A stretch of DNA of 60,798 nt from Acaryochloridaceae cyanobacterium VAR_48_metabat_390 (GTDB lineage Bacteria; Cyanobacteriota; Cyanobacteriia; Thermosynechococcales; Thermosynechococcaceae). The DNA is taken from positions 1 through 60,798 of the forward strand of contig JANPLU010000056.1 in the NCBI GenBank assembly GCA_031422435.1, written 5' to 3'. A program made the position numbers. Shown here piece after piece: positions 1 to 12,000 of this stretch (the stretch's first letter is position 1; the number at the start of each line of letters is the position of its first letter).

Positions 1-3000
1 ACCTCGTTGCTTTAAGGCTAGATTGTATTCACTCCAGTTGCGGACGCGGTATTGCTGTTTCACCCTGCTGGCGCTGACTTTAGTTATTGAGATTTATATT
101 CTCATTACACATTGGTGACTCCTATTTATGCAACAACGCCATCCGAATCCCATAGATAGTTAGAAATAACCTGACCACCTAAGGAGTGTGCCACAATAAT
201 CACTTTTTTCGCCGAATTCCCCAAATCCTGATAGGCAGCCTGGAGACTTTTTGCAATTCTTTCTTGGGCGTCACTGTATACCCCAAACTTATCAGCTTTA
301 CTACTTTCTAGGCTTGCAGCGTCCGAAAAGCCAAATAGCAAGAATTTTCTTAGATCAAGCCAGTCAACTTTGGCCTGAGTACGTGTACGCTCAAACAGTT
401 CAGTCTGAGGGGTTTGCAGTAGATCTTGATAGTACACGGGTTGAAAAGAAACCTGATCCCACTCATTTGGTAAAAGCTTAGACTGTAGCTTTTGCTTGAA
501 ATCATCCGCATAGTTTTTTTCGGTATCACCCATGCCGTGAACCGTGAGCAACGCAATTTTTTTCATCTGCTATTACCCTAAATGATAACTGGTGTCGAGA
601 TGAATCTTAGCGCTGATCGCGTGGAAAAGTGAGTTAAGAAATCTATAGATTGCACCGACAAATAAAATGTTGGGGCAATCTATAGATTTATTTGCTGCTA
701 CATAAATCTATGGTTCATTACTCTGGGTTAATCGGGTCGGAATTGGCTCTGGCTGGATGCCAACATTGAGCGTTTGTCCACTGCGTCTTACCTCTAGCTG
801 GATTGATCGCCCCACCGAAGTATTTTCTACCCTTTGCTGCACCTGACTGGCTTTAGTGACATCTTGCCCATCAATGCGCTTAATGACATCACCCATTTTT
901 AAGCCCACTTTAGACGCTGGAGAGTTGGGCAGCACCTCAAAAATGAGAACACCCTGATCTTCTTGGACTCGTAGATTAGAGCTAGCATCCCCATTAATGC
1001 GCTGCCTTAGCTCAGGCGATAGATTTGTCATCCGAATGCCCAGAAAAGGATGGTTGACCTTACCCGTTGTCGCAAGCTGATTGGCGATTTTCTGAGCCGT
1101 TTTAATTGGGATTGCAAACCCTAACCCCTGGGCACCGCCGCCAATAATGGCGGTATTCATTCCAATCACCTGCCCATACTGGTTCAAAAGCGGTCCACCT
1201 GAGTTGCCTGGGTTAATTGCCGCATCGGTTTGGATGAAGCCCACGCGCTTATCGGGTACGCCAATGTCGCCGCTAGTGCGTCCGGTGGCGCTGATGATGC
1301 CCGCCGTTACGGTATTGTCTAAGCCCAAGGGGTTGCCAATGGCGATCGCCCATTCCCCAGGTCGAAGCTGATCAGAATCGCCCATTTGCGCGACGGGCAA
1401 ATTGTTCGCCTGAATTTTGACCACGGCAACATCGGTGAGGCTATCTTGCCCCAGAACCTTACCTTTAAGCGATCGCCCATCTTTGAGCAATACCGTCACA
1501 GAATCTGCACCATTCACCACATGGGAGTTGGTCAAAATTAGCCCATCGTTGCTGATAATAAAGCCGGAACCCGTACCCCGCTCCACACGAGTGCGACTTT
1601 GAGGCATCTCACCCCCAAAAAACTGTCTAAAAAATGGGTCATTAAAAACCGCAGGGGTTCGACTTCTGACTGTGCGTGACGCATCAATACGCACCACTGC
1701 TGGCCCCACTTTCTCAACCGCTCTCGCAATAAAATTTTGATCGCCTTGGACAAGTCGTGGTGCAGCAAGCTGCGCGACGCTAGGCTGTGGCGCAAAAGAT
1801 TTACCTGGAACCATTTGCGTGCCGACCAGCGTTGCAAGGGAACCAACCAAGAGCACAGATAAATAAGTAGCCGATTTCTGGATGGAGACTTTGGGCGACA
1901 TGGTGAGGTAAGAGGGGTAGAGGTTTTTAGAGGTAAAGCTTCAAGGTCAATTTGTTTTGGGGTTAAAAATTTGCTAAGGACTATGTACGGTTATTCCTAG
2001 CAATCTTTTAAATTCTACTCATTTTCTAAAAGCTTTAGGAAATGACGTTCGTTGCTTTAGGGTATTGAATCAACGCCTAAAGAATGAACGCCATTTGTAC
2101 GGTGTGAGGTACATACTGAGCAAAGACGGACATTTTGAGCAAAGGTTTCCACAGCGAGAGGAGAATATGACGGATTATCAGCCGTCACAGCAATGGCAGC
2201 AGGCTCAAAATGAGCTTCAGCGCGTGTGGGGTTATTCACAGTTTCGGCCTTTGCAGGGTGAAATTGTTTTGTCAATTTTGCAGCGCAAAGATACCCTGGT
2301 TATGCTGCCCACAGGGGCGGGTAAGTCGCTATGCTTTCAGCTTCCGGCACTTTTGCAGACAGGCTTAACCATCGTAGTATCGCCCCTGGTTGCGCTAATG
2401 GAAAACCAAGTGCAGGCTTTGAAGACTCGCGGGGCGGATGCGGCGCTGCTGCACAGTGAGCAGTCGCGGGAGCAGCGACAGCAAACGCTATATAAGCTAG
2501 AGCGTGGTCAGTTAAGGCTGCTGTATCTGTCGCCAGAATCTTTGCTGGGCGCTAATTTATGGCAGCGCCTGATAGCCCCTTCTGTAAAAATCCAAACCCT
2601 TGTGATTGATGAGGCACACTGTATTACCCAGTGGGGCAGCAGTTTTCGACCCACCTATCGAAGGCTGGGTGCGGTGCGATCGACGTTACTGCAACAGCAG
2701 CCTGGGTCAGAAATTGCGATCGCCGCTTTTACCGCCACCGCTGACCCTGCCACTCAGCAAGATATTCGTAATGTGTTGGGTCTAAAGCAGCCGCAGGTCT
2801 TTCGCAATAGCCCCTACCGCAAAAATCTACACCTCAAGATTGTGCGGGTGTGGACTGCGGCACGTCGTCGCGATCGCCTCAATCAATTCATTCAAGCCCA
2901 AGGCCAAACCACTGGATTGGTCTATACCCGCAGCCGCAGAGATAGTGAGCAACTGGTCGAATGGCTGCAACTTCAGGGGTTGCACACCGCCGCCTACCAT

Positions 3001-9000: not shown

Positions 9001-12000
9001 TCAGTATTATCAATGGGTCTGATCCCAGGTGAAACTATTAAAAAGTTATCACCCAGGTAATTTCTTAATGATTGAGCTTCCAAGCCTGAAGAGATAACCC
9101 CATCGCAACCCAAGTTTAACGCTCTTTTAGCTCTAGACAAAACTAACGCTTCAACATCACACTGAAACCCTAAATCGTCTAAATCTTTTCTATCAAGGCT
9201 TGTAAGAACCGTAACGGCAAGAATTTTTAAATCTCCCTTTGCCTCTACAGCATATTTCAAGATCTCATCGTTGCCATGAACTGTAGCAAAAGTAGCGCCT
9301 TTATTTTTTAGCTGACGAACCGCAGATCCAACCGTTTGCGGAACGTCAAAAAACTTTAAGTCCACAAAAACCTTTTTCCCCTGGTCTGCTAGCCAATCAA
9401 CCATTTCATAATAGCCGCCAGCCATAAAAAGCTCTAATCCAAGCTTGTAAAATACGACAGAGTCTCCAAGCCTTAATACCATTTGTTTTGCTAATTCATT
9501 GCTTTCAAAATCAAGAGCAAAAATTAACCTTTCTTTAGTGTCTATAGCTTTATCAGAAAGATAGACTCGATTTTGCATTTCTATTGCTGAAGACATAGGG
9601 ATAACAGTAGTGTTTTGCTCAAGCGCAAAACTACATTCCAAAGATGATGGACAAATTCTCATTATACCGAACAACTGTCACAGATGTCTATCTATGAGAG
9701 AGTTATGCAATCTTTATGCCTCTAACCTCAAACCATGAAGATTAGCTGAATCATAAGAAATATTTCCAAGATATACTTATACTTCATTTACTGTAAATAA
9801 GCTGAATTCCTTACTCTACGGTGTTTATAGGGATTGAGCTATAAATAATTTGCGCTGGGTCTGCCACTTTCACCCCCCGTTAACCCTTGCAGAATACCTT
9901 CAGGAAATTGGCAGAGCGGGGCGAGATGGGCAGAACGCCCAAACGTTACTGCTAGCAAGCGAACCGACGGGGCTACTAGACCCCACCGATCGCCAGCGAC
10001 GGGAAGGGTTCTTGAAGACCATGCGATCGCAGGCTCAACTAGCACAAACCTTAGCCCAGCAGCTCCCCAGCGAAGGTTATCTGCCCGATATTCTCAAGCA
10101 GGAACCACAGGCAGAACTGGCCTTAGCAATTTTGCATACTCAAGGGCAGTTGAGTTGGGTTGATCCATTTCACTACCGCCTTCAGCTTAAAACTGCAATG
10201 GTGTCCAATGCCGAGCCACAGACTTCCATCGAAGCCTATCTGTCTGTGCGCGATTGCCGCTGGCGATTTTTGCTGGGTGCCTTTGGGTTTGGGCGAGAGG
10301 TGCAGGGGCTGAAGTGTGGTAGGTGCGATCAGTGCATTAATTAAATACTCTCTAGTCTTCTTGCTCATTTATTTTGCGTGTCAGAGTTTCAATTTTTTCT
10401 TTTCGTTCTTCTCTGCGATTATTACTTCCATAAACAAACACACCAACTAAGGCAACAATTGAACCTGTAGAAAGAGTGGCTCCAGCCACATCATGCCCTC
10501 TATCTATGAGATAAATTCCGCCTCCCAATGCTAGGCAAGATATCAAAAATCCAAATATCAACCCAAGTTCAGCACGCTTGCTATCGCCATAGACAACCGT
10601 AGACTCAAGCTCCATGCGGTGCTTGGATTGGGCTTGAGCCATATTCACAATCTCTTGAGCTAAACCAGGCTTAATTAAATCATATGCCTTCAATGTTCGT
10701 GGGTCAGGAATCGGCCCTGAGTATGCCATCGACATCTGAACAGTTCTTTCGATAGATGCAGAAGATTCCTTTTTATGCACAGGGAAATCTTTATGTGCCT
10801 CATGTGGAGAGTTCACATCAAGCCCTTGTGCTTGTTCGTCATCTCTGGGAGCTAAAGAATCGGTCAACGTCTACACCTTAATCAAATCTTGTGCATTTAG
10901 AAGGACAAGTGTTGCCTCACAAAGAATATTTTCGTCCACACATTTTTCTGTCTCCTTGTTAACAGAAATTGCTAACTCAATATCACTTCCCACCATGATC
11001 CAATCTGACATTAGAGCTAGATAATCAGCCTCTTCGTTGGTTATGGATGAATTATATTGATTCAAAGTCCCGCCAAGATCCAGCAGATGAGCCATGCCAC
11101 CCAGAAAAGATGGTGAAGCAAATAGATAGGCGGATAGAGTATTGGTCATTTTAAGCTGCCTCTTTAAAGTTAAGGCTGAGTCACAAAAATTGTGAACCTT
11201 ATCACTGTCAGAATTTTTTTGTCAACCCTTTGCTGCCATGTTATGATTTTATCTCAATTTAAGTAACGATGCACAGTCAAGTTAGTTAAGCGCTAGCGAG
11301 AAGAAAAGTACGAGTTGAGTTAAAACACACTTGGAACTCCAAGTATGCACCAAGTATGAGTATGATCTCACATCTCTTAAAGGATGTTTAGGAAATCCCC
11401 CAGAGTTCTTGTCGAGAGAAGCTTTGAGTCACGATCATGAAAAATCGTCAAGCTTCTTTAGATATTGATATTCTAACCAGCAGCTCCCTAGCGAAGGCTA
11501 TCTGCCCGATATTCTTAAGCAAGAGCCACAGGCGGAGTTGGCCTTAGCGATTTTGCATACTCAAGGGCAGTTGAGCTGGGTTGATCCATTTCACTATCGT
11601 CTTGAGTCCAAAACTGCGATGGTGTCTAATGCCGAGCCACAGACTTCCATCGAAGCCTATCTGTCTGTGCGCGATTGCCGCTGGCGGTTTTACTGGGTAC
11701 CTTTGGGTTTGGGCGAGAGGCACAGGGGTTAGTGTGTGGTAAGTGCGATCGCTGTTAGCCCTAGCGTCATTAATACATCTGGAAAATAGAGCGAGACTAT
11801 AGTTCTCACAACAGAAGACAGTTGCCCTGCTTCTCGTTCTTATTTCCTCTGCTACAGGATCCCAAACGCTTTTCGCCGTAAAAGTGTCAAAATCTAGTAA
11901 GACTTGTGAAAGGTAAAAACGTGGGCGAAAAAGCATTGTTTACCCCCACCGGAAAGTGGATCGTTGGCGGTGCTATCGCTGTCGCGCTAGGTCTAGCTGC

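Follow-up and report, generated by a model that had tools for sequence, protein, structure and literature searches.

A Tn554-type transposon that splits a short cyanobacterial recQ has relatives in comM and comEA, probably as part of a clade directed at natural-transformation genes

In the 60,798-nucleotide stretch of Acaryochloridaceae cyanobacterium VAR_48_metabat_390 analyzed here (the window), a transposon interrupts the helicase gene recQ. What kind of element is it, why does it lie in this gene, and what fixes its choice of target? Our analysis suggests a site-specific transposon of the Tn554 type, belonging to a cyanobacterial clade whose members probably insert into natural-transformation genes.

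The split recQ and the architecture of the element

The interrupted gene, its flank and the element comprise the following features.

2167..3116, + strand: N-terminal part of recQ, short cyanobacterial type, ending G-V-D-K-P-N-V-R (Pfam DEAD and a truncated Helicase_C)
3111..3116, + strand: left 6-bp core, TGTGCG, bases belonging to the target itself
3117-9848: TnpA-TnpB-TnpC element of 6,732 bp, within the short cyanobacterial recQ
3117..3127, + strand: left 11-bp terminal arm, AAAAGTATAGC, with GTAAAC-type subterminal motifs after it
3248..4345, + strand: tnpA, tyrosine recombinase of 365 aa (Pfam Phage_integrase and SAM_1)
4342..5943, + strand: tnpB, long tyrosine recombinase of 533 aa
5936..6454, + strand: tnpC, 172 aa, DUF6262
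6550..7401, + strand: cargo ORF of 283 aa without a named family
7401..8636, + strand: cargo gene for an HTH and ImmA/IrrE peptidase protein of 411 aa (Pfam HTH_3 and Peptidase_M78)
8850..9674, - strand: pyrF cargo, OMP decarboxylase (Pfam and NCBIfam above cut-off)
9838..9848, + strand: right 11-bp terminal arm, GCTATAAATAA
9849..9854, + strand: right 6-bp core, TTTGCG, unlike the target core
9855..10344, + strand: C-terminal part of recQ, with helicase motif VI (QEIGRAGRDG) and the C-terminal cysteines
10352..11149, - strand: DUF2335 gene and a 92-aa ORF, outside the element, flanked by the two copies of the recQ 3' end
11477..11757, + strand: decayed second recQ 3' end, 89% identical to 10056-10330 with a 1-bp deletion, running on into the native downstream flank

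The initial annotation had described a 6.7-kb TnpA-TnpB-TnpC element, with an HTH-ImmA gene and a second pyrF, that splits recQ into halves joining in frame. The genes lie where it placed them, the two recQ parts together make 1440 nt in frame, the uninterrupted motif is present in eleven loci of relatives, and the empty site of the same-genus genomes G001, G007 and G003 reads AATGTGCG(G/C)TGG. The insertion point, DKPNVR/W, leaves motifs I-V on one side and motif VI with the C-terminal cysteines on the other. The N-terminal frame reads three codons into the element to a stop at 3126, and its Helicase_C domain is broken off at model position 86 of 110. The intact G001 gene encodes 477 aa and shares 95% DNA identity with the N-terminal part; this length, together with a TIGR00614 score above and a TIGR01389 score below the cut-off, identifies the short type, the long recQ paralogues being frames of 592-769 aa. 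We assigned the gene to recQcy (slr1536 / Synpcc7942_1301 type) by type and length rather than by alignment to Synpcc7942_1301. The second recQ paralogue reported previously is present in the host, on contig C12, in a form broken off at the contig end.

The DNA to the right of the element is mosaic, and the decayed second recQ 3' end there was missing from the initial annotation. Positions 9855-10054 of the recQ C-terminal part are 14% diverged from G001 (28/200), versus 5% (45/900) for the N-terminal part (p 2.5e-5), and the DUF2335 gene and 92-aa ORF are missing at the corresponding place in G001, G007 and G003. This pattern suggests that the window's copy itself may have arrived by homologous recombination.

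The 11-bp arms are imperfect inverted repeats with one 6-bp core outside each. The left arm has an identical register across ten aligned left ends, and the right ends of other elements carry a GCTATAGATAA-type arm. TGTGCG also occurs in the empty sites of G001, G007 and G003 and at the left junctions of loci L059 and L199. By the footprint rule given in PMC10214605, TTTGCG was probably carried over from the previous site. The right core differs from the target in 6/6 genomes with both junctions of this insertion site (recQ317), and there is thus no target duplication there. The 4-nt repeat annotated at the ends therefore does not stand as a target duplication: the TGCG common to both cores is incidental, and the ends obey the Tn554-type 6-bp rule, in which the left core is the target's and the right core is carried in. 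Some comM and comEA insertions have equal left and right cores, as expected once an element moves from a like site. No circle joint or excision was seen in assembled contigs.

Both recombinases retain the tyrosine-recombinase catalytic residues; in TnpA, the R, HxxR, H and Y all fall in invariant columns. TnpB comprises a zinc finger (residues 27-58), a core-binding domain (about 100-200), a catalytic domain (217-405) and a C-terminal Cys domain, and its predicted model (pLDDT 79.6) resembles Xer/Cre/Tn1549 integrases. Homologues of tnpC follow tnpB in nearly all complete loci. The 44% match to Tn554 noted earlier corresponds to a TnpA 43.8% identical to a record named 'Tn554 family transposase A'. 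Members of the Firmicute Tn554 family (Tn554, Tn558, Tn559, Tn5406, Tn6188; Tn553/Tn552-II) have the same consecutive tnpA-tnpB-tnpC order and two tyrosine recombinases, at 43-45% identity (43% for TnpB), and TnpC has a homologue in the third gene of the Firmicute loci inserted in radC. That family is described in PMC3788773, PMC10214605 and PMC12486829 as having imperfect repeats at its termini, junction cores of 6(-7) bp of which the right one is carried in, a site in a conserved gene and variable cargo; the terminal repeats, junction cores, site-specific insertion and variable cargo are shared by the cyanobacterial elements. The latter differ in their hosts, in targeting recQ, comM and comEA instead of radC or the yolD-like gene, in using several targets within one clade, in carrying a tRNA-like RNA, and in a shorter TnpB (533 versus about 635 aa) with an N-terminal zinc finger; the window's element also lacks resistance cargo. 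That its target is recQ and not radC (att554) weakens the statement that it is Tn554 proper, but not that it works like Tn554. SEs, reported from Gammaproteobacteria, have a fourth gene (tfp), and RITs have three recombinases; the window's element instead has two recombinase genes before tnpC and no third recombinase-fold gene of the tfp, ginC (GInt) or ritC kind.

Among the cargo, the 283-aa ORF has no Pfam or NCBIfam match and only hypothetical proteins as Atlas matches; it is possibly a toxin partner of the adjoining HTH-ImmA gene. The HTH-ImmA protein, also present in L055, L196 and L246, matches the spr1629-type antitoxin model below its cut-off. The element's pyrF is the second in the genome, 35% identical to the host copy on contig C48. 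A promoter scan gave matches at chance level.

Insertion targets and their link to TnpB

Insertion at the recQ317 codon, with both halves present, was found in six genomes (the window; L155 and L185; L147; L199; L204; L221) and one metagenome contig (L246). The carriers belong to several families, consistent with site-specific insertion and bearing out the earlier proposal that recQ is a recurrent target. Its further claims that Walker A is a second split site in recQ and that relatives lie in comM were likewise borne out, by the independently found case L034 and by comM proving the commonest target (16/68 loci versus 7/68 for recQ). A third recQ site, the DEAH motif, is used in L220/L228 by a remote TnpABC branch, and comEA is a third target gene absent from the initial annotation. 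The comM sites are 218 (reverse) and 244 (both orientations), and the comEA sites 220 (reverse) and 425. Every insertion site falls within a strongly conserved motif, namely Walker A, DEAH, helicase motif V or the PLD HKD region.

Altogether, 29/68 distinct cyanobacterial loci adjoin recQ, comM or comEA and 39/68 adjoin none of them, although a few of the latter have the same end motif; these counts exceed the number of independent events because recQ/comM-type queries were used to pick some samples and related Nostoc elements account for many cases. The least selected sample gave 10/40 by hand count. In an open comparison against all host ORFs, the split host genes in cyanobacterial loci were recQ, comM and comEA only. 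Firmicute loci adjoin radC, as do 0/68 cyanobacterial loci, and non-cyanobacterial relatives sit at places other than recQ, comM or comEA.

Some loci are irregular or were set aside. Irreversible rearrangement or deletion marks L187/L188, L219/L227, L248 and L063; L143 and L153 show a right end but lack a tnp gene within 10 kb. L244 and L247 were dropped as chance matches, as were seven non-cyanobacterial rows without a tnp or target gene. The open comparison also returned an IS-like integrase, repeated in L053. The remote TnpB of G771 had no further match among 301 genomes.

In PMC3414803, the individual roles of TnpA and TnpB are said not to have been established. By sequence comparison, the target gene tracks TnpB residues ~1-360 and not TnpA or TnpC. 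AU tests rejected grouping by target for TnpA (p 5e-37 and 1e-3), TnpC (1e-8 and 2e-64; tree without L193) and TnpB 361-end (0.009 and 2e-12), and did not reject it for whole TnpB or TnpB 1-360 (L071 and L081, with broken frames, were omitted and L053 entered as a truncated frame). An exchanged patch is visible between L199 (recQ) and L085 (comM), which are 86% identical in TnpA, 89% in TnpC and 95% in TnpB 375-533 versus 55% in TnpB 24-360; DNA identity dips to 0.49-0.76 only across the 5' part of tnpB. The recQ317 TnpBs form a clade in a quick tree (SH-aLRT 97) and a grade in two further analyses, which do not reject the clade (p 0.42, 0.33). The grade counts against our reading; the AU tests and the exchanged patch argue with good confidence for TnpB as the specificity factor.

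A tRNA-like RNA in the element

Between the HTH-ImmA gene and pyrF lie two structures.

8642..8672, strand unassigned: 14-bp hairpin just upstream of the tRNA-like RNA
8678..8745, + strand: tRNA-like RNA with a 7-bp acceptor stem containing G3:U70 and A73, and a 5-bp T stem

Most elements of the group carry the tRNA-like RNA, which the initial annotation lacked, and other copies too have a hairpin at the corresponding place. It has a 2-3-bp D stem with a 3-4-nt loop, an extended anticodon stem and a CUCCUAA loop. Across 13 copies, 99.2% of cells are paired and 8/20 pairs have two-sided changes; 0/500 shuffles reached covariation as high. The RNA is not a canonical tRNA, having neither a normal D-arm nor a 5-bp anticodon stem and no variable loop; ARAGORN gave no match, and Rfam none at threshold. 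A genome search with the RNA model, in which only 30 candidates per genome were scored, gave 12 matches outside the window: four in such elements or remnants, three look-alikes elsewhere and five ordinary tRNAs. One exact pattern, a weak test, had 0 matches in viral contigs. A small peptide across the RNA was ruled out, as the short ATG frame is not conserved across copies.

The RNA resembles tRNA-Arg(CCU) in its 7/5 acceptor/T arm and 7-nt C-U-C-C-U-A-A loop, but differs in its D-loop of only 3-4 nt, its extended anticodon stem and its missing variable loop; the host has its own tRNA-Arg(CCT). G3:U70 is the identity rule of alanine acceptors. Further systems for comparison are the tRNA-like domain of tmRNA and allo-tRNAs.

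Natural transformation and competing explanations

In the supplement of Taton 2020 (PMC7125226), recQ (Synpcc7942_1301) has a fitness of -2.05, PLD-type comEA -2.46 and comM -1.38, all with high confidence, while radC, the classic Tn554 target, scores -0.54 without high confidence; recQ appears in that supplement without discussion in the main text. The role of recQ in transformation thus comes from one pooled screen in another species (Synechococcus), with orthology by type and length rather than alignment; the screened strain has only the cyanobacterial-type recQ, 1464 bp (PMC5101192 Table S1). As recQ, comM and comEA are all high-confidence transformation genes in the screen, the best reading of the insertions is that they target natural transformation. 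The host's comEA, comM, comEC and dprA frames are open.

The element would travel as a circular intermediate, the donor's 6-bp core ending up at the new right end; TnpA would serve the conserved element ends, while the zinc-finger, core-binding and catalytic-domain helices of TnpB would read the target. The split RecQ would be inactive and transformation lowered, which could shield the element from replacement by incoming element-free DNA. The balance leans towards this loss of transformation being a selected benefit for the element. Weighing against transformation targeting are the 39/68 loci elsewhere, the radC value and the second recQ in the host.

The same sites could instead be safe harbors, conserved non-essential coding motifs that give a wide host range, with the effect on transformation a by-product. 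The conservation of every site fits this account, as do contigs of unrelated organisms that match the recQ motif at 3081-3116 and the Tn554 site in radC, itself a conserved motif whose function is unclear (PMC3788773). Although conserved genes that a cell can do without are numerous, all three split host genes are on the high-confidence transformation list, and they are reached in eight combinations of site and orientation, and also by a remote TnpABC branch; we consider safe-harbor targeting unlikely.

Markedly less probable is a reversible switch, with conditional excision restoring recQ so that competence or repair is on when needed. The 6-bp core preserves the frame whichever core stays, in L246 a D-L-R allele resembling the right core serves as a natural target, the HTH-ImmA protein could sense stress, and a contig from run X2 joins 3117 to 9856. 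That contig, however, is more likely an element-free relative, because its short side is 39 letters and, by coordinates, it has a different base at 9855. Related two-recombinase elements also copy out without making an empty site, according to PMC10214605, and the rearranged or deleted loci listed above are irreversible. A single old insertion, spread by descent or homologous recombination of the recQ flanks without continuing site-specific targeting, would accommodate the more diverged recQ C-terminal part, the duplicated recQ 3' end and the three cases that are Nostocaceae. It is very hard to reconcile with intact recQ in same-genus genomes, carriers in several families with differing cargo and TnpA from separate branches, and three different recQ sites in use; the differing right cores largely refute it as a general account, although it may still describe how the window's copy arrived.

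Targeting of transformation genes has a precedent. The tyrosine-recombinase element in comM of Hsieh and Peters (PMC9881144 Fig. 8C) and Tn7-like elements targeting comM/comEC likewise split a cyanobacterial competence gene, with the same proposed benefit; the accessible text gives one example, without a Tn554 assignment, recQ, comEA or a targeting determinant, and our set of comM elements may include that one. Neither recQ nor comEA is among the insertion targets in section 13 of the 2025 review PMC12378983. The initial annotation had held that only recQ was new; this stands for recQ but undersold the case, as the published literature searched, which lay outside the TIGER listings, where recQ islands could be included, also contained no report of the comEA target, the TnpB-linked target switch or the tRNA-like RNA.

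A bolder extension of transformation targeting, which we offer as a tentative possibility, would be a retargetable anti-transformation transposon. A swappable TnpB module (residues ~1-360) would have moved repeatedly between recQ, comM and comEA, short RecQ would be an unrecognized core transformation helicase, and the tRNA-like RNA, charged with alanine, would read the arginine codon AGG and mistranslate or stall AGG-rich messages, in defense or in control of element genes.

Read as targeting of natural transformation, these insertions would extend the conflict of mobile elements with that process to cyanobacterial Tn554-type elements, would place recQ and comEA among the interrupted competence genes and would implicate short RecQ in transformation. 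Separately from this, the tRNA-like RNA stands as a well-supported structure outside known families. The old question of TnpA versus TnpB roles becomes testable, with natural mosaics marking the TnpB region to swap, and a retargetable integrase pair would serve cyanobacterial engineering.

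Recurrent insertion of a Tn554-type transposon in recQ

Contig C56, which the window covers in full, belongs to a cyanobacterial genome of 3.7 Mb that carries a single copy of the element. Its recQ breaks off after G-V-D-K-P-N-V-R and resumes at W-V-C-H, and gene order and Pfam matches confirmed that a TnpA-TnpB-TnpC element with HTH-ImmA and pyrF genes splits it, as the initial annotation had proposed.

3117-9848: the element, its limits set by aligned arms
Between the recQ parts, in order: tnpA, tnpB, tnpC, a 283-aa ORF, the HTH-ImmA gene, pyrF

The C-part of recQ was matched in 30 of 31 related genomes, with frames nearly all of 463-548 aa, and the uninterrupted motif was found at 11 loci of relatives. 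G+C is 0.36-0.44 in the element and 0.54 in the recQ parts. TnpA shares 43.8% identity with a record annotated as Tn554-family transposase A, in agreement with the likeness of about 44% claimed before. The 283-aa ORF and the HTH-ImmA gene (6550-8636) share one base and look like an spr1629-type toxin-antitoxin pair, a match below the cut-off.

Alignment of ten left ends revealed a 6-bp core followed directly by an 11-bp arm and GTAAAC-type motifs; right ends consist of GCTATAGATAA-type arms followed by a 6-bp core. The window's left core, TGTGCG, is the target's own bases, and its right core is TTTGCG. A 4-nt repeat had been reported at the ends; because right cores differ in the five other genomes with both junctions at the window's insertion codon, recQ317 (TAATGG, CTTTAG, TTCTCA, TATGGG and TTTTGG), this match is incidental and not a target duplication. 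In Tn554-type and SE elements, the new right end is described as receiving a copy of the 6 bp on the donor's left (PMC10214605, PMC12486829), and the cores seen here agree with that rule. Away from recQ, two loci have recQ-like right cores (L076, TGTGCG; L136, TGTTCG), a weak hint of elements that left a recQ site.

The proposal that recQ is a recurrent target at one codon was borne out: both halves were seen at recQ317 in the window, G441 (L155 and L185), Pseudanabaena sp. ULC068 (L147), L199, L204, L221 and metagenome contig L246. G861 has an exact right junction, with the N-part on another contig and ending five codons short, and metagenome contig L248 retains the left end alone. Scanning 185,579 genomes for the junction pattern gave six matches (five true, one by chance), and a metagenome collection gave three (two true). 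Given these few matches and the repeated use, the site is therefore recurrent but rare. Insertion in Walker A, also suggested earlier, was seen in Kastovskya adunca (L001/L034). In G771 the insertion lies at a third site, after DEAHC, and its TnpABC belongs to a distant branch (identity 18-22%; hhalign 88% and 94%); among 301 genomes this is a single case.

Several of these loci have further features. At L001:19263, the Walker-A element contains an internal palindrome made up of a right arm, 6 bp and an inverted arm, which resembles a circle junction or a nested end. The G771 element (L220:7498-20000 with L228) is 18 kb long, has the remote TnpABC and the same tRNA-like RNA as the window, and splits recQ after DEAHC. 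In the recQ-inserted element of L221, a DprA-like (DNA_processg_A) gene (7882-8799, minus strand) lies between the left end and tnpA.

Target genes and TnpB

We surveyed targets by a Pfam scan of 107 flanking ORFs and by comparing 95 loci with every ORF of their own host. In cyanobacteria the split host genes were recQ, comM and a PLD plus helix-hairpin-helix gene, which is the cyanobacterial comEA type; beyond these, the only gene matched on both sides was an IS-like integrase, which is repeated in L053. Once identical loci were merged, 68 cyanobacterial tnpA loci had sufficient flank; of these, 29 adjoin recQ (7), comM (16; named earlier as a target of relatives) or comEA (6), and 39 adjoin none of the three. 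The share was 10/40 in the set of 80 best TnpA relatives; unlike this set, later locus searches were biased towards the recQ, comM and comEA clades. Eight site and orientation combinations were found: recQ 52, 152 and 317; comM 218 reverse and 244 forward and reverse; comEA 220 reverse and 425 forward. At comM residue 244 (L-[S/T]-F), one 6-bp core is used in opposite orientations by L056:9844 versus L061/L133, which belong to different TnpB branches. G671 carries one element in two inverted copies (L187 and L188), with comM halves 0.4 Mb apart at different copies, which suggests an inversion between them.

Other neighbors were also observed. radC adjoins Firmicute loci. At L039:4120-4896, a variant of four genes (tnpA, a pair of tnpB-like genes and tnpC) directly follows a gene whose N-terminal domain is of the CoiA type; L062 has a DdrB-like ORF in that place. 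A ParB-HTH gene regularly adjoins acidobacterial TnpABC elements (L093, L096, L101, L108, L113, L114 and L116) and is possibly a further fixed target.

In a tree of 45 TnpA, recQ- and comM-targeting elements are intermixed, and the window's nearest TnpA belongs to a comM element (support 100/98); a tree of 43 TnpB groups by insertion site. AU tests (20-21 rows) rejected target groups for TnpA (p = 5e-37, 1e-3) and TnpC (1e-8, 2e-64) and did not reject them for TnpB (p = 0.42; comM clade 100). With 23 rows, for TnpB residues 1-360 comM formed a clade at 100/100 and a recQ clade was not rejected (p = 0.33), the best tree having a grade there; residues 361-end rejected both groups (0.009, 2e-12). 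The clearest pair, L199 (recQ) versus L085 (comM), is 86% identical in TnpA, 55% in TnpB 24-360, 95% in TnpB 375-533 and 89% in TnpC. Its DNA identity drops to 0.49-0.76 in a patch flanked on both sides by 0.83-0.94; this patch encodes TnpB's zinc finger, its core-binding domain and the greater part of its catalytic domain. Strong differences fall in helices 172-191 and 336-350, which could read DNA by analogy with helices that contact DNA in Cre/Xer complexes. That TnpB tracks the target is a correlation, drawn from sequences related to one another, and does not amount to proof; the literature consulted leaves the separate roles of TnpA and TnpB open (PMC3414803, PMC8138268).

A tRNA-like RNA within the elements

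8678-8745, plus strand: tRNA-like RNA with an alanine-type acceptor stem and CCU loop, a structure common to most related elements

ARAGORN made no call here and no Rfam family matched. Across 13 copies, which are mutually related and supplied the tested structure, 99.2% of cells pair, with two-sided changes at 8 of 20 pairs; shuffled and slid controls all scored far lower. None of these copies departs from G3:U70, A73 or the CUCCUAA loop; more distant ones show slight variation in the loop. Among the elements scanned, an RNA model matched all of those in recQ (the eight at recQ317 and the other two) and, by site, 9 of 12 at comM218, 1 of 2 at comM244 and both at comEA425. It matched 0 of 4 at comEA220 and none of the Firmicute or acidobacterial loci scanned. 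The RNA usually starts ~40 nt past the stop of a cargo gene, with a hairpin ahead of it, and the upstream genes vary (HTH-ImmA, winged-HTH, P63C, KilA-like). Searching genomes with the RNA alone uncovered three new recQ-split elements and thus links RNA, element and target independently.

Look-alikes with other loops are present outside such elements. RNAs of similar build occur at L209, L210 and L213, none of them within these transposons, and two differ in loop sequence; the one at L209 has a WYL gene on one side and an apparent type I-E cas operon on the other. Tentatively, our best guess is that the RNA accepts alanine and serves as an AGG reader or decoy; alternatively, it may be a regulatory or processing signal. 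Literature searches, judged from their listings, returned nothing resembling it.

Arrival of the element and the link to transformation

Divergence from the nearest relative is 28/200 in recQ right of the element versus 45/900 in the left part (p = 2.5e-5); 1.1 kb further on, the recQ 3' end recurs in decayed form, joined to native flank. A fragment from a related species may have brought the element in. Another sample from the same study contains an allele that lacks the element. At 10056-11757 two copies of the recQ 3' end, the second frameshifted, enclose a DUF2335 gene and a 92-aa ORF. This spot looks like an insertion hot spot because in two same-genus genomes, G007 and G003, recQ is followed directly by other pairs of small genes.

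The Tn554 family and the targeting of competence genes are already known, and a cyanobacterial comM element is, as stated initially, in print (PMC9881144). The claim that only recQ is new held for recQ as a target and failed in its "only": recQ and comEA as Tn554-family targets, the TnpB-linked switch and the tRNA-like RNA were all not found in searches of titles and abstract openings, with subscription papers, the TIGER paper and supplements and bioRxiv supplements outside their reach. Breaking competence genes is a described strategy of mobile elements; in section 13 of a 2025 review neither recQ nor comEA is given as an insertion target, and recQ and Tn554 appear nowhere in the review's text as consulted (PMC12378983).

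In the supplementary table of a transformation screen in S. elongatus, recQ (Synpcc7942_1301) ranks 17th by fitness (-2.05, FDR 2e-50), between pilW and pilT; comEA (-2.46) and comM (-1.38) are, like recQ, high confidence, radC (-0.54) is unflagged, and the main text as consulted leaves recQ unmentioned (PMC7125226). The strain is reported to have the cyanobacterial-type recQ and to lack the E. coli type (PMC5101192), and Synpcc7942_1301, at 1464 bp, is in line with the 477-aa type here. Because the comEA, comM, comEC and dprA frames of our host are open, the recQ break may be the transformation block in this organism, and we infer that it lowers transformation there.
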